Below are positions 9,136-40,674 of a stretch of 64,000 nucleotides of DNA, piece after piece. The stretch comes from an uncultured Acidobacteriota bacterium (lineage in GTDB: Bacteria; Acidobacteriota; Terriglobia; UBA7540). A program made the position numbers and the translations under genes. Positions within the stretch are counted from its first letter, which is position 1, and each line of letters opens with the position of its first letter. Below the pieces are notes generated by a model. That model made no database searches and was not told the DNA's origin. It was given only the letters and a program-made list of their open reading frames with translations. The stretch spans positions 640,001 through 704,000 of the forward strand of contig CAWDSK010000006.1 of assembly GCA_963804995.1 (NCBI GenBank), given 5' to 3'.

Positions 9136-10495
9136 ATGAATCCGAACACTTACAATCCTGCGGCCTTCACGGTGGTCGACCTGCTCATCAAGTTGGCGGT
9201 CATGGCCCTATTGGCGGGCTTCATCGCGCGTTTCGGGATGTTCCGGCGCCTGCTGGTTATTGAGCAACGGGGACCCCGCGAGAAGATACAGTTTGCCCTG
9301 TTTCTGGGACTGCCCTTCATGGTAGGCGTGCTAGTACGTTTGCTTGAGCATTACCCAACTACCGATCTGAGCCTGGAAGTGACCGTGCTGGCGGGACTGC
9401 TGGGCGGGACGATTGTGGGCCTGGCGGTGGCGTTGATTGTCAGCCTCCCTACTCTACTCTTTCATCTTGGTCACATGGAATTCCTGGCCTTGCCAATGGC
9501 TACACTCTATGCGGTGGTGGCCGGAACGCTACGCTGGGTTTGTCCCGACAAAGAAGAGATCTGGAAATTCTCGCCCTTCATTGATTTGAGCCTGTACCGT
9601 TCGATTCGGCAAAAGTTCAAGCATCCTGCCATTGACTGGCAAGTCCTCTTTACACTTATCTGCATCATCCTGGAAGTCATTCGCATGGTGGTGGTAGGGC
9701 CCATCTCTCACGGAAGGCTGTTCTATCCGTACTCCCCCAATCATCTCACACAGGTACTGATCGTTTTGGCCACCATCATTGGGGTCGGCTTGCCGGTTCG
9801 GATTTGGAACACCACGCGCATTGAGCACAAACTCGTGGAACAGGAGAAGGCGCTGCTCCAAGCACGCATGGACGCACTCATCAGTCAGATTAATCCCCAC
9901 TTTCTCTTTAATACTTTGAACACGATCTCCTCCCTGATTCGTTTCGATCCCGACACAGCTCGCACCGTGCTGCTCAAGCTATCGAACATTTTGCGCCGGC
10001 GCCTGAAATCCCAGGTTCACTTCTCACCCCTCCGGCAGGAGTTGGAGTTCATCGATGATTACCTGGATATCGAAGTAGTGCGGTTCGGGCGAGACAAGTT
10101 GCAAATCCGCAAAGAGATTGATCCTGAGACTTTGGAAATAGTCGTTCCCAGCATGATCTTGCAACCCTTGGTGGAGAACGCGATCCGGCACGGCATCGGG
10201 CCGAAAATTGAGGGCGGCACAATCACCTTGCGAACCAAGCGTGGCAATGGCCGGCTGATGATTGAAGTCATCGACAACGGAGTGGGGATTCCTGAGCCGC
10301 GGCAAAGCGAAGTGTTCGACAGTGGAATCGGAATCAGCAACGTTCGCGAGCGCCTGGCGGTGCTCTACGGCGAGGATTTCTCGATTAAGATCGATAGCCA
10401 GCCGGGCCAGGGAACCGCAATCCGGCTCGAAGATTCCAGAGTTGCTCACTTCAGTGCCTGCGGCGCGGGTCGAGGCCGCCGCCGCCCTGTCTTAG
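9136..10495 (+). CDS. LytS/YehU-type membrane sensor histidine kinase; apparent extra base near 10430
   Basis: TM helices, SQINPHFLFNTLN, LQPLVENAIRHG, DNGVG, GIGISNV; C-terminus continues as IPELLTS...ALS* in the 10262..10495 frame. Confidence 0.9.
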
Positions 10496-10678
10496 AAACT
10501 CTTCCCGCCTACGCGACAAGCCAGCGGGCGTGGTTCGGACTGCGCCGGCCGCTGGTCTCCACCCACCGCACGGCTGTGCTTTAATTTTCCGATAACGATA
10601 TAGATTTGGGCGTACAATCCTCCCATCCCACTGGTGACTTCGGGCGTGTGCAGACAACTTGAAGAGGAGGACTTTGTT

Positions 10679-11383
10679 ATGCCAATTTCAAAACGCGCGA
10701 CAGCGGAATTCGTCGGAACATTCTGGTTGGTTTTCGGGGGATGCGGGAGCGCCGTGCTTGCCGCGGGATTTCCCAGCTTGGGCATTGGATTTCTGGGCGT
10801 CGCCTTGGCCTTTGGCCTGACGGTGCTGACCATGGCGTTCGCCATCGGCCACATTTCCGGATGCCATCTTAACCCCGCGGTTTCCGTCGGCTTGTGGGCG
10901 GGGAAGAGATTCCCCGGTTCAGACTTGATCCCTTACATCCTTGCGCAGGTCGCAGGGGGAATTGTAGCCGCCGGCGTCTTGTACGTCATCGCCAGCGGCA
11001 AAGAAGGATTCAGCCTGGCGGGTGGCTTCGCTTCGAACGGCTACGCTGAGCATTCGCCTGGCGGATACTCGCTGACGGCCTGCCTGGTGGCGGAAGTTGT
11101 GTTGACCTTCATGTTCCTGGTGATCATCCTCGGCGCCACGGACCGCCGCGCGCCGCAAGGCTTCGCACCCATCCCCATTGGCCTTGGACTGACACTGATT
11201 CACCTCATCGGAATTCCGGTCACGAATCTTTCCGTAAACCCGGCGCGTAGCACCGGCCCGGCTATGTTCGTCGGGGGTTGGGCAATCTCGCAACTGTGGC
11301 TGTTCTGGGTGGCGCCGATATTGGGCGCGGCGTTGGCGGGCGCCTTTTATCGATTTCTCGCCGGCGATGGCAAGGCTGCTTAA
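10679..11383 (+). CDS. aqpZ: Aquaporin Z
   Basis: [11 protein letters not shown] and [10 protein letters not shown] (two NPA motifs). Confidence 0.97.
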
Positions 11384-11509
11384 CCCACGCACAGTTCGAT
11401 TGTATGAGTACGAAATGCCGCACCCTCTTGGTTTGGTCGCGCGGTAAAAATGAAGAAGGGATGGCAGGCCATACCCCAACAACCTAGGGACCTATGCTAG
11501 TATTTTTGG

Positions 11510-11668
11510 GTGGTGCGTGGAGGGCGGTTTCTTGATATTTCCCGGGGCGTAAGCAATCCGTCGGGGTGAGGGCTGGGCGGCGCCCGGCGAGTGGCAAGAG
11601 TCGCGCGCGCTCCACGCTCTCCGAATCCCCCCGCAATGCCCGCAGGGGCGGCAGTCTGAATTCGGAGC
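11510..11668 (+). ncRNA. Candidate structured leader RNA of unknown family
   Basis: Long irregular stem 11515-11617 with several G.U pairs on +, second hairpin 11619-11667, extended -10-like TGcTAGTAT at 11495-11503. Confidence 0.35.
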
Positions 11669-11696
11669 TTTAAACATCCAGGAGCGAGGTTTCCGT

Positions 11697-12035
11697 ATGG
11701 CGAATGATGGGCCCAACAAGAAGAAGAATCCTCCGGCATCGATGAGCATGATTGAGCCGCGGATTCGCAACATCTACCGGTCTTTCTACAAGGAAGGATA
11801 CTTCACCCCCTCCGCATTGGATTTGAAAACCAAGGAACTGATCGCCATCGGCTGTTCTCTGGTGGCGAAGTGTGAGGGCTGTTTGGAAGGACACATCAAG
11901 AAGGCGTTGGAGTTGGGCGCAACCAAGCAGGAAATCAGCGATGCGATTGTGGTGGCCATTGGCATTGGCGCCGCCAGCATCATGGACCAGGCCGACAAGG
12001 CGGCCATCAAGCTGGACCTGCATCACTTTGAGTAA
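11697..12035 (+). CDS. Carboxymuconolactone decarboxylase / AhpD family protein
   Basis: LDLKTKELIAIG..KCEGCLEGH..ALELGAT..EI with CxxC motif. Confidence 0.9.
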   Translation: MANDGPNKKKNPPASMSMIEPRIRNIYRSFYKEGYFTPSALDLKTKELIAIGCSLVAKCEGCLEGHIKKALELGATKQEISDAIVVAIGIGAASIMDQADKAAIKLDLHHFE

Positions 12036-12189
12036 GGGGCGGGCGGACCCATCAAACTAAGCGGGGCAAAGTGCCAGGATAAGACGAAAGTCGAAATTCG
12101 AAACTTGAAACTCGCGAGCTATCCATCAATTTTCGAGTTTCGAATTTCGAGCTTTGCCTCTGGCACCTGACACCTGTCACTTGACACCT

Positions 12190-13386
12190 ATGGACTCCCT
12201 GGTGATCGGCAACCTCTTTCTCCTGCTCTTCCTGGGCTTGGCCGACAACCAGATGATCGCCGCACTCTTGCCCTCGCTCGTGAGTTCCTTTGACATCAGC
12301 GTCGCAACGGCGGGTTTACTGGTGGTGGTTTACTCGGTTGCGGCGGCGCTGTCGGCGTTCTTCTCCGGGACGCTTTCCGATCACTACGGGCGCCGGCGAT
12401 TTCTGCTGGCAGGGGTGGTGCTTTTTGCCGTGGCTTCCTGGGCGGCGGCGGAGAGCCGAACCTTTCGGGAGTTCATGTTGGCGCGTGCGGTAACGGGATT
12501 GGCGGCCGGCACACTTTCCACCTGTTCCATCACTTATGCCGCGGATTGGTTTGCCTACAACGTGCGGGGCAGGGCGATTGGGCTGATCTCTTCCGCTTAC
12601 TTTGCCGCGCCCATTCTGGGTGTGCCGATCGCCGCCCAGATTGCCGACCACTTCGGCTGGCGGCGGGCGTTCCTCTTCTTCGGGGCTTTGGCGGCAATCG
12701 CGATGTTCGTTTCCATCAGCCTGCCCAAGGAGCGCCTGAGCCCACTCCCCTCGACCGAGAAGTTGCGGAGCACGGTCGAAGCCTTCCGTTCCTTTCTTTC
12801 GCGACGGGACACCGCGGCGGCGCTGGTTATCGCCTTTTTGGTTTCAGGTGGTCTGGTGGGATTCCTGACCTACATCGGGCAATGGCTGAATATCCGCTTC
12901 GGTCTTCCCACCCGCACGATCGGCTGGGTCTTCATGCTGGGTGGCATCGTTGCGGTCGGGACAGCTCCCCTGGGAGGAATTGTTTCTGACCGCTGGGGAA
13001 AGCGCAACATTTCGATCGCCAGCAATGTCCTGCTCGCAGTCGCAGTGGCTTTCGTTCCGTTTTTTCCGTGGGGATTGGGTTTGCTTGCCGTCTTCGCTTT
13101 CGCGAGTTTGGGTGCAGCGTTCCGGCAGGGGCCCTTGACCGCGCTGATGACCGAACTCGTGCCCGCCGCGCAGCGCGGTTCCTTCATCGCCTCGCGAAAC
13201 ATCTCCTCGCAGCTTGGCATTGGAGTTGCGGCTTACGTAGGTGGGCTTCTGTTCCAACATTACGGCTACGTGGCGGTCACATCGCTTTGTGCGGTGATGA
13301 CCGCCATAGTGGCGATTTTGCTCGGAACCCATATTGTCGAGCCGGAGGGATCGGGCCATCGTGCCGTTGGGGCCTCGGAACATTGA
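12190..13386 (+). CDS. MFS transporter
   Basis: GTLSDHYGRRR and GIVSDRWGKR motif A repeats; about 12 TM segments. Confidence 0.92.
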   Translation: MDSLVIGNLFLLLFLGLADNQMIAALLPSLVSSFDISVATAGLLVVVYSVAAALSAFFSGTLSDHYGRRRFLLAGVVLFAVASWAAAESRTFREFMLARAVTGLAAGTLSTCSITYAADWFAYNVRGRAIGLISSAYFAAPILGVPIAAQIADHFGWRRAFLFFGALAAIAMFVSISLPKERLSPLPSTEKLRSTVEAFRSFLSRRDTAAALVIAFLVSGGLVGFLTYIGQWLNIRFGLPTRTIGWVFMLGGIVAVGTAPLGGIVSDRWGKRNISIASNVLLAVAVAFVPFFPWGLGLLAVFAFASLGAAFRQGPLTALMTELVPAAQRGSFIASRNISSQLGIGVAAYVGGLLFQHYGYVAVTSLCAVMTAIVAILLGTHIVEPEGSGHRAVGASEH

Positions 13387-13429
13387 CTCAGGGGCCCGCT
13401 CACCCTAGGGGCAGGTTTGAAGGAGAAGC

Positions 13430-14371
13430 GTGGAGGGAAAAGTGCCGTCGCGGGCGCGAATTCTGAAGGGTGTTCGAAATGTGTTCTTGATGGTGGCCGT
13501 GCTGGTCGCCGCGTTTTTTCTCGTCGTTGTCCCCTGGTTCTTCACCTCGATCATCACCTACCGCCAATATCACTATCCCGATCCGAACGATGGGAAGACC
13601 CCGAAATCCTACAACCTCGATTTCCAGTGGGTGGAGTTCCAATCCTCGGACGCAATTCCCCTCAAGGGTTGGTACATTCCCGCCGAGGGCGCGGCGCGCG
13701 GCACGATCGTCTATTGCCACGGACTGAATCGGACGCGCATCGAGATGCTGCCTGACGCCGTCTTCGGGCACAGCCTGGGTTACAACGGCCTGCTCTTCGA
13801 TCTTCGCCACCAGGGCATGAGTGGCGGCCCCATCACCACGCTGGGTTACCAGGAACGTCTGGATGTTGAGGGCGCAGTGCGTTTTGCGCTCGAGCAGGAG
13901 AAGGCGGCGCGGCCGATCGTCGCGTGGGGAGTCTCGATGGGAGCCTCGGCGGCGTTGCTATGCGCGGCTGAGTCGCCGAACGTCGCCGGGGTGATTTCCG
14001 ACAGCTCTTTTGACTCTATGATGGGTACGCTGCAGCATCACTTGAAATTGTTCCTGCATCTCCCGGGCTTTCCGATTGCCGACGAAGTTGGTTATTGGGT
14101 CGCCTCGCGTGGCCACTTCCGGCCCGGGGATTTCGACCTCGTGAAGGCGGTGGAACAAATCGGTGATCGGCCGATTCTGTTCGTCGCGGTCGAGGGTGAC
14201 CGCCGCATGCCTCCCTCGATCGCTCAGACTCTCTACGCGCATGCCCGGAGCCCGCAAAAGAAAATCATCATCCTGCCCGGACGCCGCCACGGTGAGGGGT
14301 TTAACCAAGCCCGCGAGCCCTACGAGAAAGCCGTGACGGATTTCCTGGCCAGCCTCCCCGCCGGGAAGTAA
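13430..14371 (+). CDS. Membrane-anchored alpha/beta hydrolase
   Basis: N-terminal TM, CHG, DLRHQG, GVSMG nucleophile elbow, terminal His. Confidence 0.9.
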   Translation: MEGKVPSRARILKGVRNVFLMVAVLVAAFFLVVVPWFFTSIITYRQYHYPDPNDGKTPKSYNLDFQWVEFQSSDAIPLKGWYIPAEGAARGTIVYCHGLNRTRIEMLPDAVFGHSLGYNGLLFDLRHQGMSGGPITTLGYQERLDVEGAVRFALEQEKAARPIVAWGVSMGASAALLCAAESPNVAGVISDSSFDSMMGTLQHHLKLFLHLPGFPIADEVGYWVASRGHFRPGDFDLVKAVEQIGDRPILFVAVEGDRRMPPSIAQTLYAHARSPQKKIIILPGRRHGEGFNQAREPYEKAVTDFLASLPAGK

Positions 14372-14502
14372 GCGGGTGGCGCTCCGAGCCCCGATAGCGC
14401 GTTCTTTCCAAATTGATCATCGGGTCCAAGCGCCGGAGCGGGGCTGACAAGGGGATAGCCGATTGCTCGTCACTTGTCACCCGCCGCATGTCACTGTCTA
14501 CT

Positions 14503-16268: not shown

Positions 16269-16274
16269 AGCCGC

Positions 16275-17517: not shown

Positions 17518-18424
17518 ATGGAAGCGATTGTACTCGAACACGTCAGTAAGCGCTTTGACTCCGTCGTGGCCGTAGACGACCTGAGCCTGCGTGTTCGAGC
17601 CGGGCTCGGTTTTCGGGCTACTGGGCCCCAATGGCGCCGGCAAAACCACTTCTTTACGAATGATCATGAACATCCTGGCGCCCGACGAGGGATCCATCCA
17701 GGTGCTCGGGCAACCGCCCAGCGAACGCGTGCAGGACCTGATCGGATATCTCCCCGAAGAGCGCGGCTTGTACCCGCGCATGAAAGTGCGCGAAGTTCTG
17801 GTCTTTCTTGCCGCGCTCAAGGGGTTGAGTGAAGCCGAAGCCGCCAAGCGGGTTCACACCTGGCTCGAACGACTGGAGCTCACCGCCTGGGCGGAAAAGA
17901 AGATCATCGATCTTTCCAAAGGGATGCAGCAGAAAGTGCAGTTCATCGCGGCGGTCATCCACGAACCTCGGCTGCTGATCCTCGACGAACCCTTCACGGG
18001 CCTTGACCCGGTCAACGCCACCCTGATCAAAGACATCATGTTGGAACGGCGCGAACAGGGCTGTACCCTCATCCTTTCCACCCACCGCATGGAACAAGTG
18101 GAGATGATGTGCGATGCGATCTGCCTGATCCATCACGGGCGCAGCGTGCTGGCCGGGAACTTGCGCGCCATCAAGCAGTCCTACGGCAAGAATACGTTGC
18201 GTATGGAGTATTCAGGAGATGGCAATTTCCTCGACCTGCCGGACCTGGTGGAAAGGCTTAACCACTTCGGCGCCGTGGTGGAGGTCACGCTACGGCCCGG
18301 CGCTGACCCTCAGGAAATCCTGAAGGCCGCGCTTGCCCGCGGTGTGCGCCTATCGCGCTTCGAGTTGGTTGAGCCGCCCCTGCACGATATCTTCATTGAG
18401 AAGGTTTCGGAGGAGCATGCGTAA
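17518..18424 (+). CDS. ABC transporter ATP-binding protein; apparent extra base near 17594
   Basis: MEAIVLEHVSKRF...LSLRV joins EPGSVFGLLGPNGAGKTT; LSKGM signature, ILDEPFTGLD. Confidence 0.93.
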
Positions 18425-19952: not shown

Positions 19953-21284
19953 ATGACAGCACCAAACCAGGGAATCGGCAGGCGGCAATTCCTCAGCGCA
20001 ACTGGCGCTGCGGGACTCCTGATCATCAAACCGCAACTCGTGCGCGGCACCGCAGCCAATTCGGCAATTCGACTCGGTTTAATCGGTTGCGGAAATCGCG
20101 GGACATACGTAGCCACCTCCTTTGCAGACCACACCAACGCGCGCGTGGTCGCACTCGCGGACTTGTTTCAGGATCAATTGGAAAAAGGCAAACAACACTT
20201 TGATAGTCTGGCGGCGAAAAGGGGTTATGCCGGGATTGATTCCAAGCTGATGTTTCGCGGGCCGAAAGCTTATCAAGCCTTGGTGAGCTGCCCGGAGGTC
20301 GACCTGATTCAGATCTCCACACCTGACATCTTTCACCCGCAGCACCTGGAAGCCGCTGTGCACACCGGCAAGCACATCTATTGCGAGAAGCCCGTGGCGG
20401 TGGATGTAAGCGGCTGCAAGCGCGTGATGCAGATCGGGGAGCAAGTTCGGGAGCGCTTCAGTCTCGACATCGGTTTCCAGCTTCGCAGCGTGCCCCCTAT
20501 ATGGAACTCGTCCGCCGCATTCACGCCGGGGGCTTGGGCAAAATCGCCTGCGGCGCGGCGGCTTTCCATTCCACCGGCGTCTTCTACCCGCCGCACCCCA
20601 ACGCCTCACCTCTGGAGTTGCGCATTCGAAACTTTTTTTGGGACCGCGTCATCGGCGGCGACATCATTGTCGACCAGAACATCCACCTGCTGGACCTGTG
20701 CAACTGGATGCTGGAGGCGCACCCGCTCAAAGCCATCGGCACGGGCGGCAGAAAGATTCGGGAAGATTTCGGAGACTGCTGGGACCACTTCGACGTCACC
20801 TACACTTACCCCAAAGACGTGCACGTTAACCTCAATTCCTTCCAGGGCGCCAAAGCTCTGTTCGATGCCTCGATCCGCATGTTCGGCTCGAAAGGCGTCG
20901 CCGAGCTGCATTACGAGGGCATCGTGGGCCTGTACGGCGAAGAACCCTGGGAGTGGGAAGGCAGCGTCGGGCCCGCTTCACCCCGACCTGGGCACGCGAA
21001 TATCTACGAGCAGGGTACTGAAGCCGCTGCGGAACGAGTCTCGGGAGTCTTCCATAGCGCCCTCGAACACGCCGACTCCGAAAAGGAAAATGCCTTTATC
21101 GACAGCATCACCAGTGGAAAGTTTCACAATCAGGCGGCCACGGGCGCGGAGTCAGCTCTGACCGCCATCCTGGGACGCACCGCGGCTTACACCGGTCGGG
21201 AAACGACTTGGGATGAGATGATGGCGTCCAGCCAAACATATGATCTGGAACTGCGAGGGAATCGACCTGCGTGAGTTTGAGTGA
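19953..21284 (+). CDS. Tat-exported Gfo/Idh/MocA oxidoreductase; apparent indels near 20495 and 21259
   Basis: GRRQFL Tat motif, LIGCGNRG, HIYCEKP; continues in the 20381 frame (VDQNIHLLD); probable tail GIDLREFE*. Confidence 0.88.
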
Positions 21285-21348: not shown

Positions 21349-24264
21349 GTGTGCCCAGCGATGATTGGGAAAACCGTCTCTCACTATCGAATTCTGGAAA
21401 AGCTGGGCGGCGGCGGGATGGGCGTGGTGTACAAGGCCGAAGACACCGCGCTCGGCCGTTTTGTGGCGCTCAAGTTTCTGCCGGAAAATCTGGCCAAGGA
21501 TCCCCAAGCGCTCGATCGCTTCCAACGCGAGGCGCGGGCCGCTTCGGCGCTCAACCACCCGAACATCTGCACCATTTTCGAAATCGGCGAGCACGAAGGC
21601 GAGCCCTTCATCGTGATGCAGCTTTTGGAGGGGCAGACCCTCAAGCATCGCATCGAGTCCAAGCCCTTTAAGACCGATACCCTGCTCAACCTGGCGATTC
21701 AGATCGCTGACGCGCTCGAACGCCGCGCACGCCAAGGGCATTGTGCATCGGGACATCAAACCCGCCAATATTTTCGTCACGCAACGCGGCCAGGCCAAGG
21801 TGCTGGACTTTGGTTTGGCGAAGCTCGCGCCTTCCAGCCGTCCGCGCGCGGGAACGGGCGCCTCCGGCATGTTGACGGCTCAGACGCGCGAAGAATTCAA
21901 TACCAGCCCGGGCGTCACTATGGGAACGGTGGCTTACATGTCTCCCGAGCAGGTGCGGGGAGAAGACCTCGACGGCCGTTCCGATATTTTTTCCCTCGGT
22001 CTGGTGCTTTATGAAATGGCCACCGGCGTGCCCGCTTTCAGTGGCAACACTTCCGGGGTGATTCAAGAAGCCATTCTCAACCGCGCCCCGATTTCTCCGC
22101 TGCGCCTGAATCTTGATTTGCCCCCCAAGCTCGAAGAAATCATTTTCAAGGCGCTCGAAAAAGACCCCGACATGCGCTATCAGGGCGCTTCCGAGCTACG
22201 AACGGATCTCAAGCGTCTGAAGCGCGACACGGATTCCGGGCGTTCCGCCAGCCGGGTGCAAATGGGAGAACCCAGCAGTCACATGTCTGCCCAGCCCAGC
22301 CAGTCGCGGCAAGACGCGCATTCGGGGATGGCGCCTCCGTTTCCCCCACCGCCGGCGGCGAGCGGCCCCACGCCGGTCACGCCTGCGTCAAGCGGGTCCA
22401 GCGCGGTCACCCCGGCTCCAGCGCCGGTCGAACCCTCGGGCGCGGTTATTCCCTCGCCCCCAACCACCGCCCAATGGCGAGGTCTCAAACTCCTAGTTCC
22501 TGCCGTCTCAGCTTTGCTGGTTATCGTGTTGGCGCTGGGTTGGTGGCTCACGCGCCACCGCCCATCAAGGCCGGGGGCGGTGGAAGTCCATAAGTCTTTG
22601 GCGGTGCTTTACTTCTCCAATCTTTCGCAAGATCCCTCGCTCAACTGGCTGAACCGCGGCCTCACCGAAATGCTCACCACGAATCTAGCCCAGGTGAAGG
22701 GATTGGACGTGCTTTCGACGGAGCGCATTCTGGCCGAAGTTCAGCGGCTGGGGATGAAGGATGCGAAGGAACTCAACCCAGCCTCGGCGGTGAAAGTGGC
22801 GCGCAACACGGACGCCGACGCGTTTGTCACCGGCACGCTCCTGCGCGTCGGCCCCCAGCAGCTTCGGCTCGACGTACAGGTTCAAGACACTAAATCCGGT
22901 CAGATACTTTTTTCCGACAAGGTAGAGGCCGCGGACGTCCAAGGCATCTTCAGCATGGTGGATGCAGTGACGGGCCGCGTCGCACAGCGCTTCGCGCCCT
23001 CGGCCAATATGGCCATGAATGCTCCCAGCATCGAAGAAGCGGCAACTTCTAACCTCGAAGCCTACCGGCACTATCAGCTCGGGCTCGATTTTCACCGACG
23101 CTATCTCTTTGCCGAAGCAGTCCAAGAATTCGAGAAAGCCGTCCGGCTGGATCCGCAGTTTGCGCTGGCTTACTTCTACCTTTCCAGGGCCTATGCGATG
23201 CAGGGGGATCTTCGCAAAAGCCAGGACCTCTGGCCGAAGATCGAGCAATTACAGTCCCGCCTGTCGCGCAAAGACCGGTTGGAGTTTCAGGCAGACCAGG
23301 CTTTTCGGGCCGGAGACTTAATGGGGGATAGGCAAATCCTGGAATCGCTTCTCAAGGAGTTTCCCCGCCAGGACGGGGCCCGGGCGCACCTGTCGCAATT
23401 GTTGCTTTACGCAGGCGAAGTGGACCGCGCTGTCTCCGTGTTGCAGGATGGGCTTCAACTCGATCCCAGGAATGACACGCTCCTGAATATTCTCGGATAC
23501 GCGCAGGCATTATCCGGAAACTTGGCGGCCGCGCTCCAGGCCAACGATCAATACATGGCGGTTCGCCCCAACGACCCGAATCCCTGGGACACGCGCGGGG
23601 ACATCCTCTATCAATTGAATCACGACGATGAAGCGGTAGCGGCCTATCGTAAAGTCCTGGCGCTCAAGCCGGATTTCGTAGGCTCCGAAGACTATGTCAA
23701 ACTGGCCGTCGTTTACGCGGACCAGAAGAAATTCGCGCTGGCAGATTCGGCGCTCTTGGAATACGGCAAACAAGTTACGGGCGCGGCCAAGTTCTACGCT
23801 TCGGTATTTGCCGGGCAGTTTCAGGAAACGCGGGGAGACTTGGAAGGCGCGCGAGCAAGTTATGAGCGCGCCGCCGGGGACTTGGCGCGCGCCGGGCAGA
23901 ACGCGGGCGCCGCTGACGCCCTCCTGCCGCTGGCCAGGGTTTCGATTCTGACGGGCGAGGGATTGGCCTCCGATCTGGCCTTCGCCCGTCAGCAAAACCT
24001 CTCCGGATGGGAGTATCGGGCGATTGCCTTTCTGCAGGCGGCGCAGGGTGATACGGCGGCCTCCGAACGCAGCCTCCAGCTCTATGCGGCGGCTCGCCCC
24101 GATATGGGTCCACGAGGCCTCGAACAGATTCGGAATTACAACGCCCTTTACGCGGCTCTGGTGCGCAAGGACCCGCAAGGCGTACTCGCTGCGGCAGGCC
24201 GTCTGCCGAACTCCGTGGATTCATTCTTGCGATATCCGCGCGGTTGGGCCTATTTCGAGACTAA

Positions 24265-25173
24265 GAGCTTATCCGTAAATACTTATTGAAGTCTGCTGCA
24301 ATTTGATGCATGATTATGACCCAAGATGCCGCAGATAAAATCTTGGGAAGTATCCGACGAGTTTTGGGTGAAAGTCGAACCGCTGATTCCGGTTCGACAG
24401 CGGTCGAAAGGCCGAAAGTATAGGCGGAAGCCGGGGGGTGGGAGGAAGCCAATGCCGGCGCGCCGGATCTTCTCGGCCATTGTGTATGTGCTGCGCACGG
24501 GATGTCAGTGGAAGGCCTTGCCCAAGGAATTCGGCAGCGCCAGCGCGGTCCACAAGCATTTTCAACAGTGGCACCGGGCGGGTTTCTTTCTGGCGCTCTG
24601 GCGGTCGGGGCTGGCCGAGTACGATGAGCTGGAGGGCATTGCCTGGGACTGGCAAAGCATCGACGGAGCGATGGTGAAAGCCCCGCTGGCCTTGACTTGC
24701 GTGGGACCCAATCCCACCGATCGGGGAAAAAAATGGGCGCAAGCGAAGTTTGTTAGTCGACGGGCGTGGCGTCCCACTATCGCTCGCCGTCAGCGGAGCC
24801 AACCTGCATGATGTGAAGCTGCTGGCCACCACCCTCGACCAGGTGGTGAGAGCGCGACCGGCACCGCGACCGAGAAAGCCCCAGCACCTTTGCGCCGATG
24901 CCGGTTACAAGGGATCCCGCGCTCGGCAAGCGGCCACGAACCGCCACTACCGGCCGCATATCAAGCAACAGCGAGAAGAGATGGAAGCAAAACGTATCGT
25001 CCCCGGTTACAAGGCTCGCCGATGGGTGGTCGAGCGGACCCATTCCTGGCTCAACCGATACCGCAAGGTGTTGGTGAGCTTTGAAAAGACCGAGGAAAGC
25101 TACGTCGCCCTACTAACCTTAGCCGCGGCCATGATCTGCTGGCGACAGACAATTATTATTTACGGATAAGCTC
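24265..25173 (+). mobile_element. IS5 family element (IS427-like, two-ORF), 909 bp
   Basis: Perfect 17-bp TIR GAGCTTATCCGTAAATA; TAA target duplication at 24262-24264 and 25174-25176. Confidence 0.95.
24326..25169 (+). CDS. IS5 transposase in two frames joined at GGGGAAAAAAAT
   Basis: YVLRTGCQWKALP, SIDG, GPNPTDRGK / LLVDGRG, LCADAGY, RWVVERTHSWL. Confidence 0.92.
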
Positions 25174-25640: not shown

Positions 25641-28434
25641 CTACGATTTCTTTCGCGCTTTCTTGGCGGACGGAATAAGGGGTGCGGTCAGTTTTTCGAA
25701 GAGGGCGAAGAGGTGCTCCACGCGCTGGCGGTCGTTTTCAAATGGTTGGGAACGGTAGCAGCGATCAACAGCTCGGTCGAGGCCAGTATGGGCTTTGACC
25801 AGCGCTGAAGGCATCGTCAGTGGGTCGTAAAGATCGGCCAGCGTGGCGTCGGGGAATTGTTCGCGGGCGTCCAATATCGCTTGCGCAGCGGTTTCCACGG
25901 CTGCACGTTGCTTGGCGCCCGGGGCTTCCGGCCACGGGTAATTGTTGTAAACCAGCTTGGCCGAATAGCGGTAGCGCGACTCCAGCCGTCCGCCAACTTG
26001 TCGCAACCAAGCCATGTGCATCGCTGAGGAAAGTACGCCGAAATCGTAGAGTGTGGCGTGGGGAACAATTCTTACAAGGCTGCTTGCAAGAATTTCCGGC
26101 TTAAGAAAACCGATGGGAACGTAATTGCGCCGCTCAGAGCTTACTTCGGGGATAACGAGATAACTTTGAGTCGGCATGTTCTCGAACATGGAAGCGCGTC
26201 GGCTTGTCCGCGATTGCCCGTGTCGGCGCGCTCTTGCTGGCCAGGCGAAATTTTCTTACAGCTTCGACACGCGCCATCGCGTTCGGCATCTTGCGGAGCT
26301 TTGCAGGGGGACAGTCGCCGAGCCATAGGCACCAACGCTCGATTCCATTGATGAATTCTTCCGAGCCGATCCAGCGCCGGAAGAATTCTTTTGCGTCTGG
26401 CTCTAGCTTCAAGAACTCAGCCTTCTCCTTTGGCGTAAAAAGGTAGTTGCCGTCATCAATCGGCTTGTTGCCGATCCCAATCTCAGGCGCGTCGCAGAGG
26501 GGCAAAGCACGATTGACGATGGCGCGGTCGGGGCCTTCGACCAGGTATGGGCTAATGTTGCTAACAATGCTGACGCTGGCTTTCTCACCGCCCTCCTCGT
26601 ACTCGTAGATGCGTTTGTTCTTCGCATCCGAAGCAGCAAAGCCCACGACAACAACATGAACATGTGCCTTGCCTCGCGCCTCGCTTTGCCACGCAAAGGG
26701 CCGATGGCCAAATAGGATTTTCGATCGATAGCGTTGAAAAAGCGCATTCCACAAAACTCCGACTTGCTCACCTTGAGAGATCGAATTGGTGGACACAAAA
26801 CCGACAACGATGCGTGTCCCTTTGATGTATTCGGCAGCCTTAAAGTACCACCCGGTAACGTAATCGAGCAGGCCACTGTTCTCAACATCGCGAGCAATAA
26901 GGTCCATATCAGCGCGTTGCTCATCGGTTTGGAATTTTCCACCGACAAACGGCGGATTGCCCAAGACAAAGCTACATTTCTCAGGGAGAAGAATTTTCCT
27001 CCAGTCGGTGCGGAGCGCGTTGCCGCAGACGATAGTTGGGGATTTCTTGAGTGGGAGGCGGACGAAGTATTGGCCGAAAGCTTCCGACAGGCGAATGTTC
27101 ATCTGGTGGTCCATAAGCCACATCGCCACTTCGGCAATTCTCACAGGCCATTCGCTAATTTCGATGCCGCAGAAAGCGTCTACATCGATTATGGATAGGG
27201 GGAGCATACCCGCTCCCTGCGTCGTATGGAGATAGAGCAGCTTAAGGATTTCAATTTCGATCAAACGCAGTTCGCGGTAGGTGATGACAAGGAAGTTCCC
27301 GCAGCCGCAAGCCGGATCGAGAAATCGCAATCGGGCGAGTTTCTGATGGAAGCGCTTCAGTTCAGCTTGTGTACCTTTGGCGCGCTCGAACTCCGCGCGC
27401 AGCTCATCCAGGAAGAGTGAGCGTATGAGCTTAAGAATGTCGCGCTCGTTGGTGTAATGCCCCCCGATTTGCCGCCGTTTTTTCGGCTCCATGACCGACT
27501 GAAAGAGTGAGCCGAAAATCGCTGGCGAGATCCGCGACCAGTCAAAGTGCGTGCAGGCTAGAAGCGCGTTACGCATATCGCTGTTGAAGTCGGCGAAGCC
27601 GAGGTTTTCCGAAAAGAGGTCACCGTTGACGTAGGGGAAAGCAGCAAGCGTTTCGTCGAGGTTTTTCTGGCGCTTGTCGGGCGGCGTGTTCAGCACGTCG
27701 AAGAGGCGTGCGAGGTGCAAGCCGAGGTCAGAGCCGTCCTTGGCGGTGCGATTCAAGAGGTAGAGCTTGAACGTTTCAGGTTCGAAGATACCGGTGTCTT
27801 CACCGAACAGGCAAAAGAGGATGCGTACAAGAAAGCGTTCGAGCTGATGCCCTGAGTAGCCGCCCGCCTCCAGCGCGTCGTGGAGGTGGCCCATGATTTC
27901 GACGGCACGAATGTTGATGGGGTCCTGCTCCTGGAATTTGTGCTGCTCGTAGCCTGGGATGAACGCAAAGAGGTGAATGTTTTTGTGGAAATCGTCCAGC
28001 GGGAACTCGATGCTCGCCACGCGCCATTCGTGGAAGAGAGGTAGATTTCGCTGCTCCTCCGGCTCTAAATCGTGCAGGGCGATGCGGGCAAAATCGGAAA
28101 CGATAACGTATCGAGGAATTTCGTCTGTGCGTCCTTCGCGCGCGAGGTCCTGAATATAGTTAAACGCCTGCGACTCGGCTTTGTTGAGGTCTCCGCCGCG
28201 GCTCTTGTGCTCGATCAGTACCTTGCCAGGCCAGAAAAGGTCAATGTAGCCGTAATCACCGGAAATCTTTTTGACCGATTCCTCAAAGCTGGCAACCGCC
28301 CGGCGAGGGACACCGAAAACATTGAAGAACTCGTTCCAAAAGGTTTGCTTCTCTGCTTGTTCCCTTCTGGCGCCTGTCCATTCCTTTGAAAAAGCAATCG
28401 CGCGATGGCGGATTTCGTTCCAGGAAAGTGGCAT
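25641..28434 (-). CDS. MmeI-like type IIL restriction-modification enzyme (nuclease + m6A methyltransferase + TRD); apparent extra base near 26185
   Basis: YIDLFWPGKVLIEHKS (PD-ExK), FLDPACGCGNF, GNPPF, PEVSSERRNYVPIG, RLESRYRYS, TLADLYDP. Confidence 0.93.
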
Positions 28435-32992: not shown

Positions 32993-33035
32993 GCACGCCC
33001 GTGCCACGCCGCGTGCACCGGTTGGGCCCAGCGCC

Positions 33036-35293: not shown

Positions 35294-35300
35294 CTCGTCC

Positions 35301-35418
35301 AGTGTAGTGTCCGGTAATTAACTGGACATCGTAGCGCCGCCATCTTGGCGGCATTTGCCGGCAGGATGCCGGCGCTACGGCCAACCCAGTTGTCCAGCCA
35401 TTTCCTGGACACTACACT
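35301..35418. mobile_element. MITE-like element (28-bp imperfect TIRs) enclosing a GTAG REP doublet
   Basis: AGTGTAGTGTCCGGTAATTAACTGGACA / TGTCCAGCCATTTCCTGGACACTACACT (23/28); internal GTAGCGCCG...CGGCGCTAC. Confidence 0.7.
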
Positions 35419-35476
35419 AGTTCCGTGCGCAGGGCAGCAAGCAAAAAATAGTTCGCTAACTCCCACGGGGGATCTG

Positions 35477-37177
35477 ATGGCTTCACAACCAGTTTATGAC
35501 GCGATCGTGGTGGGCTCCGGCGCGTCAGGAGGCATTGCCGCGTACGTCCTGGCCACCGAGGGCCTGAATGTGTTGTGCCTGGAGGGCGGCCGTCCCATCG
35601 ATCCCGCCGTGGATTTTTCCACCCACAAGATGCCTTATGACTGGCCCCATCGCGGCCACGGCAAGCCTGGCCAATACGGAAAGATCCCTCAGGGCATGGG
35701 TTGGAAAATTACGGAGTGGACAGACCATCTCTACACGATTCCGCAGGAAGACCCTTACGCGCTCGCCCCCGGCTCGAAGTTCACTTGGACTCGCATGCGA
35801 GTAGTCGGTGGGCGCACCAACGTTTGGGGACGTAGTATCGACCGCTTCGGTCCGCTCGACTTCAAGGCCAAGAGTCAGCAGGACGGCTTTGGCGAAGACT
35901 GGCCCCTCACTTACGACGACATCGCCCCCTACTACGATCACATCGAGAAGCTCATCGGAGTGTCGGGGATTTCGCCGGGAGTTTACAACACACCCTGCGG
36001 GCAATATTTGCTTCCCGGCTTTCGTCCGCGCTGTGGTGAGTGGATGATCAAGCGCGGTGCGGAGAAGCTGGGCATCAAAGTGCTACCCTTGCAACTGGCC
36101 GTGATCAGTCAGAATTACGATGGCCGTCCCGCCTGCCATTACTGCGGCGCATGCAACAACGGCTGCGATACAGCTTCGCGCTTCAGTTCGCCGGATGTGC
36201 TGGTGCCGAAACTCGAAAAGCTCAAGAACTTCACGCTGCGAACCCACGCCGTGGTGCACACCGTGCTGATGGACAAGAACACGGGGAAGGCTCGGGGCGT
36301 GACTTATATCGATGCGAACAACCGCCAGGAATACGAAGCCTATGGCAAGACCGTGGTGTTGGGCGCGTCGATGGTTGAGTCGCTCCGCATCCTCTTCAAT
36401 TCCCGCAGCCGCGAATTTCCCACCGGGCTCGCGAATTCCAGCGGGGTGTTGGGCAAATATCTCTCCGAGCACGTGGCGTTCAATAGCATCGCGGGATTCA
36501 TGCCGCAACTCGTGGGGCGCCCCACCACCAACGACGACGGGCCCGGCGAAGGCAGCCTCTACATCCCGCGCTACAATTACGGCCACGGGGACAAGAAGAA
36601 ATTCCTGCGCGGCTTTCGCCTGTATTTCCATTCCGGATGCGGGGTGGGCCCTGGCGTCGGCGCGTCGTCCCCAGGGTTCGGGTCTGCGTACAAGAAGCGC
36701 ATTAAGGACCTCTACCCCGCGAACGTTTCCATCAGCGGGATGGGCGAAGGGTTGGCATTCCCGTGGAACTACGTCGAGATCGACCCGGACGGGTTAAAAG
36801 ATCGCTTCGGGATTCCGCAGGTACGCTTCCATACCACGGCGGAGTACGACCACGCCTTCGCGATCCGGGATGAAATGTATGGAGAGATGGAGAGAATCCT
36901 GAAAGCTTCCGGTGCGGAGATTCTGCCCTACAGAAAAGTGGCGCCCTATCCGCTCGGAGCCGTTACGCATGAGGCCGGCGGCGCGCGCATGGGCGAAGAT
37001 CCCAAGACCTCGGTTCTCGACGCCTGGAACCGCTGCCACGACGTCAAGAATCTGCTGGTGGTGGATGCGGCGTGCTTTGTGACGCACCCGGAAAAGCACC
37101 CCACCCTCACCATCATGTCGCTCGCGTACCGCGCCGCGGATCACCTGGCGGAGGAAATTCGCGCGGGAAATATCTAA
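35477..37177 (+). CDS. GMC family oxidoreductase
   Basis: VVGSGASGG, VGGRTNVWG, CHYCGACNNGC, THEAGGARMG, PTLTIMSL. Confidence 0.94.
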   Translation: MASQPVYDAIVVGSGASGGIAAYVLATEGLNVLCLEGGRPIDPAVDFSTHKMPYDWPHRGHGKPGQYGKIPQGMGWKITEWTDHLYTIPQEDPYALAPGSKFTWTRMRVVGGRTNVWGRSIDRFGPLDFKAKSQQDGFGEDWPLTYDDIAPYYDHIEKLIGVSGISPGVYNTPCGQYLLPGFRPRCGEWMIKRGAEKLGIKVLPLQLAVISQNYDGRPACHYCGACNNGCDTASRFSSPDVLVPKLEKLKNFTLRTHAVVHTVLMDKNTGKARGVTYIDANNRQEYEAYGKTVVLGASMVESLRILFNSRSREFPTGLANSSGVLGKYLSEHVAFNSIAGFMPQLVGRPTTNDDGPGEGSLYIPRYNYGHGDKKKFLRGFRLYFHSGCGVGPGVGASSPGFGSAYKKRIKDLYPANVSISGMGEGLAFPWNYVEIDPDGLKDRFGIPQVRFHTTAEYDHAFAIRDEMYGEMERILKASGAEILPYRKVAPYPLGAVTHEAGGARMGEDPKTSVLDAWNRCHDVKNLLVVDAACFVTHPEKHPTLTIMSLAYRAADHLAEEIRAGNI

Positions 37178-37200
37178 CCCCCTGGGGTCGTGAGGTTGAA

Positions 37201-37836
37201 ATGAACTACGAAACCATTGGACGAAGAAAAGCCCTGAAATACTTCGGCATGCTCGCCGCGAGCGCCGCGGGACAGGAATTTCTGGCGTCGTGGCTTCCTG
37301 CCGCGGAGGCCCCGGGAGCTGCGCACGCCGCGCACCTGCATCACCCTGCCGCGCAAACCCCCGACCCCAGCCTTGCCGCTTCTTCGCCGCAATTTTTCTC
37401 GGCCCCGGAATATCGTACCGTGGAGATTCTCACCGAGTTGATTATCCCTACCGACGATCAGCCCGGAGCGAAGGGGGCGCAGGTGGCCCGCTACATTGAC
37501 TTCGTCGTTTTCTCTGCCGCCGAGTTCGAGCCGCAACTGCAAAAGGAATGGATCGCCGGGCTTGCCCTTCTGGAAAGGCTGAGCTCAGAAAAGTACGGCC
37601 ACGCATTCCGTGATCTCACCGCCGCGCAGCAGGAAGCGCTGCTCACCGAAATGAGTGCCCCGGAGCACGATCCCAAGACCAGCCACGAGGGTTTTGCCTT
37701 TTATCGGCAGGTGAAGGAAATGACAGTGGAAGGTTTTTACACGTCGAAGATAGGATTGGTCGACGTGCTCGGCTACATGGGCCGCACTTACCTCTCGGAG
37801 TTCCCAGGCTGCACGCACCCCGAGCATCAGTCGTGA
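37201..37836 (+). CDS. Gluconate 2-dehydrogenase subunit 3 family protein (Tat-exported GMC partner)
   Basis: GRRKALK, LIIPTDDQPGA, TVEGFYTSKIG. Confidence 0.88.
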   Translation: MNYETIGRRKALKYFGMLAASAAGQEFLASWLPAAEAPGAAHAAHLHHPAAQTPDPSLAASSPQFFSAPEYRTVEILTELIIPTDDQPGAKGAQVARYIDFVVFSAAEFEPQLQKEWIAGLALLERLSSEKYGHAFRDLTAAQQEALLTEMSAPEHDPKTSHEGFAFYRQVKEMTVEGFYTSKIGLVDVLGYMGRTYLSEFPGCTHPEHQS

Positions 37837-37871
37837 TCTGGGAGGGTCTGGTTGTCAGCGGATGGTGTCCG

Positions 37872-38924
37872 TCAGCGGCGATACCGCGAGGTAAATTCCA
37901 CGAGATTGCGGAGTGTCGCGCGCGCCGCGCCGGAATCCACAACCTCTGCCGCCCTTCCCACACCTTCCGCAAAATTCTCCGCTTTCCCCGCCAGGGTGAA
38001 GGCCGCAGCCGCGTTCGCCAGCACCACATCACGATAAGGACCGCGGTCCCCGTCCAATACTGCCAGCAGCAAGCGCGCATTGGTCTCTGCGTCGCCGCCG
38101 TGCAGTTGTTCAAGGGAAGCGCGCGGCAGGCGAAACTCTTCGGGGTGCACGTCGCGCGTCCGGACCGTGTTGCCATTACTCTCGGAAAGCCGCGTCGCGC
38201 CGGTCGTCGTAATCTCATCGATGCCGTCCGAGCCCGCCACCACGTAGGCCTGGCGCGTGCCCACGGCTTGCAGGGTCGCGGCCATCATCTCCGTGCGCGC
38301 GGCATCGAATACGCCCACCAACTGCACCGTCGCCGCCAGCGGATTGGTGAGCGGGCCGAGGAGATTGAACACGCTTTTGGTTTTCAAGCTGCGCCGCGCG
38401 TTCATCACGTGCTTCATGGCCAGGTGCAGGCGGGGAGCAAACAGGAAGACCATGCCGACTTCTTCAAGACAGGCCGGAATCCGCTCGAGCGGCAGATCGA
38501 TTTCGACCCCCAGGGCTTCCAGGACGTCGGCGCTACCACAGCGGCTGGAAATCGAACGGTTACCGTGCTTGGCCACGCGGACTCCTGCCGCCGCCGCTAC
38601 CAGTGCCGCCGCCGTCGAAACGTTGAACGTCCCGCGGCCATCGCCCCCCGTGCCGCAGGTATCGAGCAAGGGCTCGCGATGTGAGACGGATTCAAGCTTC
38701 ACTCCGGCCGTGCGCAAGGTTTCGGTAGCGTGGGCGCGCATCTCCTCCGCAAAACCCACCAACTCTTCCGCCTGCTCGCCCTTGTCGCGCAGCGCGGCAA
38801 GGAACGCCACAATCTCCTCATCCGGCACTGTACCCGAAAGGAGCTGCTGCATCACGGCGCGAGCTTCGGCTCGCGTGAGGTGCGTCTGCGCTTTGATGGT
38901 TTCGATGGACTCTCGAATCGTCAT
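37872..38924 (-). CDS. trpD: Anthranilate phosphoribosyltransferase
   Basis: DTCGTGGDG, FNVST, KHGNRSISSRCGSAD, FNLLGPLTNP. Confidence 0.96.
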   Translation of the reverse strand: MTIRESIETIKAQTHLTRAEARAVMQQLLSGTVPDEEIVAFLAALRDKGEQAEELVGFAEEMRAHATETLRTAGVKLESVSHREPLLDTCGTGGDGRGTFNVSTAAALVAAAAGVRVAKHGNRSISSRCGSADVLEALGVEIDLPLERIPACLEEVGMVFLFAPRLHLAMKHVMNARRSLKTKSVFNLLGPLTNPLAATVQLVGVFDAARTEMMAATLQAVGTRQAYVVAGSDGIDEITTTGATRLSESNGNTVRTRDVHPEEFRLPRASLEQLHGGDAETNARLLLAVLDGDRGPYRDVVLANAAAAFTLAGKAENFAEGVGRAAEVVDSGAARATLRNLVEFTSRYRR

Positions 38925-38975
38925 AGTGTTCTTATGCGTTCGCCGCTCGGGCACGGCATCACTATCATGAAAAAG

Positions 38976-39240
38976 CTCCCCTCCTCAGATGAGGAGGGGT
39001 GGCGCGCCGAGCGCCGGGGTGGTGCTGAAATGGGTAATGCCGGCCGTGGCGGCAAGCCGCCAAGTGGTTGGAATAACCTCCCCGTCGCCTCAGGTGCTCG
39101 CGTAACCACCCCGTCGCCTTCGGCGCCACGGAAATCAGGAGGGGAGTTCTTAAAAACACTCCCCGCCTCAGATGAGGAGCGCCTGCCTTTGTAGCGCTGA
39201 CCTTTAGGTCAGCACGTGCCGACCTCAAGGTCAGCGCTAC
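38976..39240. repeat. Cluster of palindromic repeats (CTCCCCTCC family plus GTAG REP doublet)
   Basis: Copies at 38976, about 39104-39150 and 39159-39180; TGTAGCGCTGACC...GGTCAGCGCTAC at 39190-39240. Confidence 0.75.
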
Positions 39241-39509
39241 CCCCAGTCCCCTTCATTGCAATTCCAGGCCGGATTCCCTATACTCAATATTTCGGGGTAA
39301 GCGAGCTGAACATTCTAGTGTAAGCCGCTTTATTGGCTTTGCCAAAGTTAGATTTCACATCCAGTTGATCCTTGCCGGTCTGGAATGGCCGCCCCGTAGT
39401 ATCGGGACGTTACAAGATTCTCGCCTTTCTGCAAAACAACAGGGCAAGGAAACCAGCCTCAGCCCTCCGCTGATAGCTGAAGGCTGAAAGCTGACAGCTC
39501 CTAATAAAT

Positions 39510-40674
39510 ATGAAAATCCACGAATATCAGGCAAAACAGATTCTTGCAAAGTTTGGGGTCGCGGTGCCCTGCGGCGAGGTGATCGCCAAGCGTGAGGAGG
39601 CTCGCGCCGTGGCGGAAAAGCTGGGCGGCGGAACCGTTGTCGTCAAAGCCCAGATTCACGCCGGCGGCCGCGGCAAAGGGGGCGGCGTCAAGCTGGCCCA
39701 CAATCCCGCCGAGGCCGAAGCCATCGCAGGGCAAATTCTGGGCATGACGCTCGTCACCCACCAGACCGGCCCCGAAGGCCGCCTGGTGAAGCGCGTCCTG
39801 ATCGAAGAAGGTTTGGATGTGGCGCGCGAACTTTACCTCGGCATCGTCATCGATCGCGCCTCCGGCCGGCCGGTGTTTATGGCCTCAAGCGAAGGTGGCG
39901 TGGAAATCGAAGTTGTGGCCGCCGAGCATCCGGAGAAAATCCTGAAAGAATTCATCGACCCCGCCGTGGGTTTCCAGGCCTTTCAGGCGCGCAAGCTCGC
40001 CTTCGGATTGGGCCTGGAGGGCAAGGTAGTGAACGAGGCGGCGCGCCTTTTCCAGAACCTCTATCGCGCCTTTGAGGCTACCGACGCTTCGCTGGTTGAG
40101 ATCAATCCCTTCGTCACCACGCGTGACGGCCGCGCGCTGGCGCTCAACGCCAAGATGAACTTTGACGATAACGCGCTCGCGCGCCACCCGGAAATCCGTG
40201 AACTGCGCGACCTTGACGAAGAAGACCCCTTGGAAGTGAAGGCGTCGAATTACGGGCTCAACTACATTCGCCTGGAGGGCAACGTGGGCTGCATGGTGAA
40301 CGGCGCGGGCCTGGCCATGGCCACTATGGACATTATCCAGTACGCCGGCAGCCGCCCCGCGAATTTCCTGGATGTGGGCGGCGGCGCCAACGAAGAACAG
40401 GTCCGCCACGGCTTCGAAGATCATCTTGAGCGACGCCAACGTGCGCGCGGTTCTGATTAACATCTTCGGCGGCATCATGCGCTGCGATATTGTCGCGAAC
40501 GGTGTGGTGGCCGCCGCGAAAACCCTGGGGATCAAAGTGCCCATCGTGGTGCGGCTGAAAGGAACCAACGTCGAGCTGGGGCAAAAGATCCTCCGCGAGT
40601 CCGGCCTGAACTTCACTGTGGCCAATGATATGAAAGAGGCAGCGGAAAAAGTAGTCGCGCTGGCGCAGCAATGA
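39510..40674 (+). CDS. sucC: Succinyl-CoA synthetase beta subunit; apparent extra base near 40417
   Basis: [40 protein letters not shown]; continues [11 protein letters not shown] in the 40372 frame. Confidence 0.96.

Follow-up and report, generated by a model that had tools for sequence, protein, structure and literature searches.

Methylation-linked consensus errors, probable in origin, at four short words in the genome of an uncultured Acidobacteriota bacterium

The window studied here is a stretch of 64,000 nucleotides from an uncultured Acidobacteriota bacterium (G000:C6:640001-704000, where G000 is the source genome and C6 one of its contigs). A histidine kinase gene, an ABC ATPase gene, a Ser/Thr kinase gene, an MmeI-like restriction-methyltransferase gene and sucC are each broken in the window by a single extra base. 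Extra bases and G-to-A changes at four short words of the assembly, which account for all of these breaks but that of sucC, are best read, with a probability of about 0.85, as errors that native long-read sequencing left in the consensus next to adenines that are likely N6-methylated (m6A), and the genes themselves are likely intact. The platform was probably nanopore, because the G-to-A pattern matches published R10 errors and homopolymer losses are also present. The first-pass annotation of this DNA had tied the breaks to the tetramer TCGA, or failing that to a longer CTCGA(C) motif. The assembly artefact is real and well supported, but its words are CTCGAC and CTCGAG in place of TCGA, together with GACGTC and GACGAC. 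The errors are blind to selection, in that non-synonymous changes, essential genes and identical repeats are all affected.

The source genome is 7.55 Mb in size, lies on nine contigs and is 92% complete. The nearest named relatives of its SucC are Terriglobia/Acidobacteria metagenome-assembled genomes (MAGs), at 91% identity.

Words that gain bases

Insertions and deletions were called with a gene model that has frameshift states and was trained on G000. The calls were 412 insertions and 172 deletions. Of the insertions, 128 are close to TCGA (38.4 expected), 57 to CTCGAAC (1.5 expected), 31 to GAACGTC (1.4) and 23 to CTCGAAG (1.9). In a repair test, one A was removed at each of the 615,060 AA sites of G000 and restoration of the reading frame was scored. 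The background rate is 0.6% (3,570 sites), while frame is restored at 102 of 1,502 CTCGAAC, 53 of 1,946 CTCGAAG and 56 of 1,102 GAACGTC sites. Other TCGA contexts are near background, namely ATCGAAC (6/1,054), GTCGAAC (3/1,111), TTCGAAC (10/970), CTCGAAA (6/1,798), CTCGAAT (10/904) and AATCGAC (2/647). Any single-base change within CTCG or GACGTC also brings the repair rate near background.

Methylation of plain TCGA is not upheld, as the other NTCGAN contexts are at background in both insertions and repeat copies. The longer motif, offered as a fallback, is the right one, with insertions concentrated at CTCGAC and CTCGAG. The k-mer enrichment around frameshifts that had been proposed as a check is strong for these two words, to which the signal near TCGA belongs. 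What stands of the first-pass annotation is its core, motif-specific consensus errors in very likely intact genes with DNA methylation as the likely cause. It missed GACGTC, GACGAC and the larger layer of G-to-A changes described below.

Motif insertion events are present on all nine contigs and on both strands, and nearly all of their sequences are distinct. A homologue is available for 62 of 218 motif events, and of these 55 are net +1, 5 are gap-free and 2 are at +2 or +3. A separate homology scan covered 1.08 Mb aligned to the relatives G005 and G013. Here 28 of the 46 extra-base rows of G000 are at CTCGAC, CTCGAG or GACGTC; 10 others fall in one noisy stretch of contig C8, 1 is in sucC and 7 are elsewhere. 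G013 was rejected as a reference genome, being too noisy. Its loci L013-L032 and L129-L148 carry 170 random, motif-free, frame-breaking extra bases versus 24 losses in 392 kb aligned. Random insertions of this kind are found locally in G000 as well (C8 28-51 kb and C5 500-550 kb).

Several further words were considered and set aside. CCAGCTG and AGTCGAC were rejected as insertion sequence (IS) copies (4 and 6 distinct sequences), and CTAACAA and poly-A were explained in the same way. Palindromes gave no support for double insertions (CTTCGAAG 3/203, GAACGTTC 1/86, control 3/71). GATC is only weak as a fifth motif: C[G>A]ATCC is seen in 7 of 42 repeat columns, GAATC is repaired at 133 of 19,726 sites versus 0.53%, and its k-mers are not shifted against relatives. 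G000 contains about one tenth of the CAGCTG sites expected (observed/expected 0.11), and the word is just as scarce in G005 and G013; this is genus-wide avoidance. The frequency of CTGCAG in G000 is 2-3 times that in G005 and G013, relatives that thus avoid or lose it.

A hidden layer of G-to-A changes

Near-identical repeats reveal what happens at these words outside of frameshifts. One repeat family has the same site in 19 copies, read as CTCGAC in 17, CTCAAC in 1 and CTCGAAC in 1. Over 33 repeat positions with 287 near-identical copies, CTCGAC is found 240 times, CTCAAC 40 times, CTCGAAC 5 times and another sequence twice. Copies of GACGAC (n=115) are unchanged in 99 cases, read GACAAC in 15 and carry a deletion in 1. 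GACGTC (17 copies; 34 rows counting both strands) is unchanged in 11, substituted in 4 and inserted in 2. The control words ATCGAC, TTCGAC, GTCGAC and GCCGAC have no such changes in 1,062 repeat copies. When all repeat columns are ranked, the CTCGAC context is first (21/31) and the GACGAC context second (9/16). The A of each motif has the changing G as its direct 5' neighbour.

The layer of G-to-A miscalls is roughly eight-fold larger than the insertions (40 versus 5 repeat copies). Because repeat copies read CTCGAC, CTCAAC or both, the inserted form CTCGAAC can be understood as the G and A alleles in sequence. Reads from the methylated strand would call the G 5' of the modified A as A. The consensus step would then keep the G, keep the A or write both, and a G and A written together would produce a +1 frameshift.

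A purine-degenerate site, CTCRAC, was suggested by one repeat pair and was rejected, since A-to-G at CTCAAC is not raised (1/62) and, besides, both copies of the pair can be errors of CTCGAC.

Artefact rather than mutation

When G000 is compared with relatives, the G of CTCGAC appears as A at 33 of 93 synonymous sites (control 22.0%) and at 28 of 144 non-synonymous sites (control 3.6%). The excess is similar at the two kinds of position. In an unbiased scan of non-synonymous transitions, CTC[G>A]AC is first (28/145, 5.6 expected) and GAC[G>A]AC second (21/119, 4.6 expected); GCC[G>A]AC is at 10/159 with 5.7 expected. The CTCAAC/CTCGAC ratio is 1.03 in G000 versus 0.47-0.56 in four congeners.

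The changes also follow the strand on which the contig file is written. The A/G ratio of CTCGAC is 1.19 on the contig forward strand versus 0.89 on the reverse, and that of GACGAC is 1.26 versus 0.88, with 9 of 9 contigs agreeing in direction for each word. In control words the two strands are equal. Biology should not see the strand of a file, and the dependence points to an artefact.

The genes split at the same words include essential ones. Eight were examined, picked by eye from 126 listed. Seven of them, leuS, ftsY, argS, ispF, grpE, purN and truB, have no second copy; the eighth, fabF, has a paralogue. LeuS, ArgS and FtsY are essential, and their single-copy genes cannot be null. Premature TGA in the context GT-TGA-G is raised as well (14/4,839 versus 4/17,312), with 4 of the 14 being copies of one IS. 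This excess appeared at looser thresholds, and at the strict threshold the premature-stop test returned nothing.

The relative G005 has error rows of the same shape at words of its own. GAGACC, the word of the Eco31I-type mark, accounts for 6 of its 10 rows and GACGTC for 3, while CTCGAC accounts for none. A strong shift from GTCGAC to GTCAAC is also observed in G005 (loci L049-L128; ratio 2.38 versus 1.03 and 1.17). This suggests that G005 has its own set of marked words. The words are genome-specific and methyltransferase genes are present in G000; the pairing of enzyme with motif, taken up below, is inferred.

Broken genes of the window

The following sites in the window carry an extra or a missing base, or a probable hidden substitution.

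10426..10432, plus strand: CTCGAAG, extra base in a His_kinase/HATPase_c gene (Pfam) starting at 9052; CTCGAG-type site
17593..17599, minus strand: CTCGAAC (GTTCGAG on the plus strand), ABC ATPase gene with an extra base close to its start; CTCGAC-type site
21715..21721, plus strand: CTCGAAC, Ser/Thr kinase-TPR gene split by an extra base; CTCGAC-type site
26181..26187, plus strand: CTCGAAC, MmeI-like gene split by an extra base within its target-recognition domain; CTCGAC-type site
40413..40419, plus strand: TTCGAAG(ATC), sucC with an extra base; minor class of error, with TTCGAG or the adjoining GATC as the possible motif
21251..21257, plus strand: CTGCGAG, end of a GFO/IDH/MocA gene; true place of a sixth insertion, fitting no motif
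10273..10278, plus strand: GACAAC in the His kinase gene; likely hidden G-to-A miscall of GACGAC at 10276
40143..40148, plus strand: CTCAAC in sucC; CTCGAC is the likely true word, with a hidden G-to-A miscall at 40146 that turns Asp into Asn
20493..20497, plus strand: C-run one base short in the GFO/IDH/MocA gene; ordinary homopolymer loss
41729..41740, plus strand: C-run or T-run one base short in sucD; ordinary homopolymer loss

The first five words are where they had been reported, and each shifts the frame of a conserved gene by +1. They had been presented as one TCGA class. Four of them belong to the CTCGAC/CTCGAG class, and the sucC site TTCGAAG is outside this well-supported class. In the His kinase gene, all 11 of the 11 homologue loci lack a base at 10424-10432 and end in ...IR[FIL]E[IM]PEL.... 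In the ABC ATPase gene, 9 of 9 are shorter by one base at 17595-17597. The Pkinase domain is split by 21715-21721 at model positions 112/120, and the repair gain there is the largest in the window. The MmeI_TRD domain (Pfam) is split at model positions 123/125. In sucC, 11 of 11 relatives have one base fewer at 40417-40419. A single deletion repairs CTTCGAAG, the class of the sucC site, at 8 of 203 sites versus CTTGCAAG at 0 of 125, and the extra base could be a G and A merge at the adjoining GATC.

The sixth insertion had been placed at GGAATCGAC (21257-21266). The +1 is real and the place is not, as the gap is at 21253-21254 in 11 of 11 homologues and the GGAATCGAC codons align gap-free in all 11. 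Assignment of this site to AATCGAC was rejected, given its genome-wide repair rate (2/647) and an extra base that lies in CTGCGAG.

The two gene-breaking losses near 20495 and 41738 were correctly described as ordinary homopolymer losses, and homologues confirm C- or T-run deletions. At the first, 11 of 11 homologues are one base longer, and at the second 10 of 10 aligned relatives are. Homologues also bear on the two probable silent miscalls: position 10276 is G in 11 of 11 aligned rows, and position 40146 in 12 of 12.

Short reads cover two of the insertions. The sequencing runs searched contain at most 16% of the words sought, and many short-read contigs are relatives' DNA. Base 21719 is omitted in the short-read contigs of 4 of 4 runs, some of which may be from relatives. 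At the MmeI-like gene, a short-read contig of 251 bases aligns with 0 mismatches and one gap to the 252 positions 26004-26255. The alignment does not place its gap, and 26181-26187 is the sole break found within that interval.

The MmeI-like gene and GACGAC

25641..28434, minus strand: MmeI-family (Type IIL) restriction-methyltransferase gene, probably split in the assembly only; candidate writer of GACGAC

This is the sole MmeI-type gene in G000. Its two halves match MmeI (5HR4) with E-values of 1e-241 and 3e-49. The MmeI_N, helical spacer, methyltransferase, target-recognition and C-terminal domains are colinear with MmeI, in two frames joined at 26181-26187. The nuclease D...EXK and NPPF motifs are intact, with IDLFWPGKVLIEHK and GNPPF aligning to MmeI.

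Specificity in this family can be predicted from residue pairs (PMC4833311, PMC2731914). Aligned to MmeI, the protein has E751/S773, L774/R810 and E806/R808, which by the published rules give C3, G4 and C6. S723/H737 point to G1. I642/K645 point to A2 or C2, as three enzymes with this pair read A2 and a fourth reads C2. The code predicts G-(A/C)-C-G-A-C, with positions 1-2 loose. This G and A/C were noted before the GACGAC error footprint was tested. In repeats, the footprint is seen in 15 of 115 GACGAC copies versus 0 of 409 for GCCGAC.

GACGAC, as read from the sequencing errors, is therefore probably written by the MmeI-like enzyme of the window. The enzyme appears intact and is likely active, because the footprint matches the site given by the residue rules, and its gene would be split by an error at another enzyme's word. 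Caution is needed as CG-A-C may simply be the most error-prone context, and other Type IIG/ISP enzymes are present in G000. True disruption in the host is on record for some MmeI homologues (PMC2731913). The same enzyme was dropped as the writer of CTCGAC, its residues for positions 1-2 pointing to G and A/C.

Enzymes of this family methylate the penultimate A of an asymmetric site of 6-7 bases on one strand and cut some 20 bases away. Members of the family include MmeI (TCCRAC), EsaSSI (GACCAC), DrdIV (TACGAC), ApyPI (ATCGAC) and DnmA of B. subtilis (GACGAG). Like these, the gene encodes the nuclease, methyltransferase and recognition domains in one polypeptide, with a predicted asymmetric six-base site and the penultimate A as its predicted target. 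It shares the E/S, L/R and E/R residue pairs with the C3-, G4- and C6-specific members. The DnmA site, GACG(m6A)G, is related to GACGAC (PMC7261158). GACGAC does not occur in the main text of PMC2731913 (0 occurrences). No account of GACGAC as an MmeI-family site was found in the open literature, a search that did not extend to REBASE or to most subscription papers and supplements.

Candidate writers of the other words

The candidate for GACGTC is a beta-class methyltransferase on contig C2 (L039), which may well act like M.AatII. Among five relatives, only G005 has an orthologue (91%), and errors at GACGTC are common to G000 and G005, though the other four relatives were not all checked for such errors. 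L039 has a PADLOC MTase_II match, and its best PADLOC model agrees in length with M.AatII (331 aa). The proposed link to M.AatII draws on this length and on the co-occurrence in G005. M.AatII makes G(m6A)CGTC (PMC3287169). This is the same word, and its methylated adenine falls in the G-A step that is affected.

The writer of CTCGAC and CTCGAG would be some Type IIG, ISP or III enzyme, possibly with a separate enzyme for CTCGAG. Matches in G000 to PF01555 and to PF07669 number nine each; among them are a Type III Mod/Res pair and several IIG/ISP genes. PglX of BREX had no matches over the cut-off in G000, so that a full-length PglX was not found as the CTCGAC writer. L033, an SPPY-type methyltransferase, was not supported for this role because G037 and G008, which have orthologues, show normal CTCAAC/CTCGAC ratios. 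XhoI/PaeR7I-type systems are marked at CTCG(m6A)G. As would fit such systems, CTCGAG sites in G000 gain insertions at and beside the A; unlike them, the asymmetric CTCGAC is hit harder than CTCGAG. No XhoI-family nuclease was found in G000, in a search whose controls were also blank. L044 (G000:C4, 436-2113) is a gamma-class methyltransferase gene beside a PD-(D/E)XK-like gene, is split at GAACGTC and is a candidate for the CTCGAG writer. Homologues of L044 occur in 13 of 400 other long-contig genomes, and plasmid searches gave no specificity names.

A further locus on the window's contig (L290:3293-7945, G000:C6) has an ATPase and two D12-class adenine methyltransferase genes, with a truncated CcrM/DpnA-like methyltransferase next to them. 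These are candidates for the weak GATC signal.

Alternative explanations

The errors may be linked to methylation of a different base. If the opposite strand carried a methyl-cytosine (GT[C]GAG, GT[C]GTC), it could be read as T; since a C-to-T change on either strand shows up as G-to-A on its complement, these data cannot separate the two. L033 is likely an N4-cytosine enzyme, and a CTCGARB 5-methylcytosine (5mC) motif is described in B. subtilis (PMC7261158). This reading is nonetheless unlikely. No PF00145 5mC enzyme is present in G000 (92% complete). G037 and G008, with L033 orthologues of 87-91%, have ratios of 0.49 and 0.47 versus 1.03, their sequencing platforms not being stated. GACGTC and GACGAC, furthermore, agree with known or predicted m6A positions.

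It is less likely still that every TCGA is methylated, as TaqI-like m6A or as T(m4C)GA (N4-methylcytosine) in the manner of M.EsaBC2I, with a base-caller that errs only in C-TCGA-C/G. Flanks do matter, with GCTCGAAC repaired at 75 of 572 sites versus 2.4-3.5% with other first bases. A small CTTCGAAG class is also present, and T(m4C)GA enzymes exist (PMC3287169). Against this, ATCGAC, TTCGAC and GTCGAC have 0 G-to-A changes in 653 repeat copies and background insertion rates. GTCGAC is clean in G000 yet seemingly error-prone in G005, and the few CTCGAT variants overlap GATC.

That the changes are real in the cell, through a mutational hot spot, gene decay or two strains merged in the consensus, is very improbable. 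The disrupted MmeI homologues mentioned above would fit such decay, and k-mer ratios alone permit real avoidance of restriction sites. The single-copy essential genes, the equal excess at non-synonymous and synonymous positions (premature TGA included) and the dependence on the contig file strand all speak against it, as does the identical short-read contig that is one base shorter. Mixed strains, for their part, would lack motif specificity. Equally improbable is a base-caller that miscalls these k-mers in any DNA: A/G confusion is reported to persist in amplified DNA (bioRxiv 10.64898/2026.01.14.699587), but G005 errs at GAGACC and GACGTC and never at CTCGAC, and four congeners have normal CTCAAC/CTCGAC ratios.

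Points that weigh against consensus errors at methylated adenines

Several observations fit less well with errors beside m6A. Of 532 insertions called by the model, 162 fall on the three words; the others, which are the majority, are slippery sites of IS elements, random errors in the two local stretches or false calls. The sucC and sixth sites match no strong motif. CTCGAG has insertions but no non-synonymous excess of G-to-A (1/55), so that the merge route is documented for CTCGAC and GACGTC only. GACGAC, conversely, has substitutions but no insertions (6/982). The strand bias of CTCGAC is weak in G-rich bins (1.00 versus 0.93). Short-read support is thin: at 26181 it consists of a single identical contig, and the contigs at 21719 may be relatives'. 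None of the methyltransferases of G000 is tied to CTCGAC or CTCGAG, and both the platform and the methyl mark are deduced from the consensus sequence. Finally, methylation-linked indels are nearly all deletions in Neisseria assemblies made only from Oxford Nanopore Technologies (ONT) reads (PMC12506013).

Relation to published errors

Methylation-linked nanopore errors, including indels, are an established class of artefact. Published work names G-to-A (G2A) as the leading R10 error where motifs are methylated (bioRxiv 10.64898/2026.01.14.699587; PMC11610603), and such errors are strand-specific and lost after amplification (PMC11610603, Hammerhead). The G000 changes resemble the C2T/G2A errors of R10.4.1 in these two reports, being G-to-A changes at short motifs that are kept in the consensus and are genome-specific. 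The R10.4.1 studies used reads and amplified controls and concern substitutions; for G000 the changes are read from the consensus, and some split calls are insertions of G and A together. The Neisseria indels are likewise at or next to methylated bases and outside homopolymers (77 of 103; PMC12506013). Nearly all of them are one-base losses, mostly at 5mC, whereas G000 has +1 gains at likely m6A words. No account of merged G and A insertions was found in the open literature, most subscription papers and supplements not being covered.

Scale and significance

About 200 genes of this species-representative genome look broken at motif words. The frameshifts are without biological meaning, the genes being very likely intact, and their value is that of a quality warning. 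Silent miscalls scaled from repeat copies amount to approximately 780 CTCGAC (~14%) and 490 GACGAC (~13%) sites. The k-mer ratios allow up to 22-27% of CTCGAC to be miscalled, a range to which real avoidance may contribute. An estimated 1,200-1,300 further sites carry silent G-to-A errors that frameshift filters miss, and these would distort protein trees, the ratio of non-synonymous to synonymous substitution rates (dN/dS) and pseudogene counts.

The errors also provide a testable methylome for an uncultured Acidobacterium, together with the prediction GACG-m6A-C for the MmeI-like enzyme. On balance, and by a narrow margin, we favor a broader reading in which the consensus alone reveals four m6A words. 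GACGAC would then be a new MmeI-family specificity whose writer's gene is displayed as a pseudogene. The four-word readout is suggested by the G/A split in repeats, the non-synonymous excess and the file-strand bias. If this is true, public long-read MAGs could pair uncultured methyltransferases with their sites, and more than 1,000 silent missense errors could be flagged per affected genome.

Other features of the window

An IS5-type transposase gene (24326-25169) has a frame change near 24783 and many copies. Of these copies, 16 have a neighbouring AGTCGAC, and the frameshift is probably native to the IS. On the minus strand, an in-frame TAA at 51044-51046 splits a DUF1501 gene whose Pfam model continues (79/92); its context, ATT-TAA-ACC, matches none of the four motifs. 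A PSCyt1/PSCyt2/PSD1 gene (DUF1549/DUF1553; 51643-57003) is broken by a DDE transposase, itself with an in-frame TAG near 54190. Short intergenic TTTCGA(A/G/T) repeats at 12091-12150 and 42392-42480 belong to a genus-wide repeat family.

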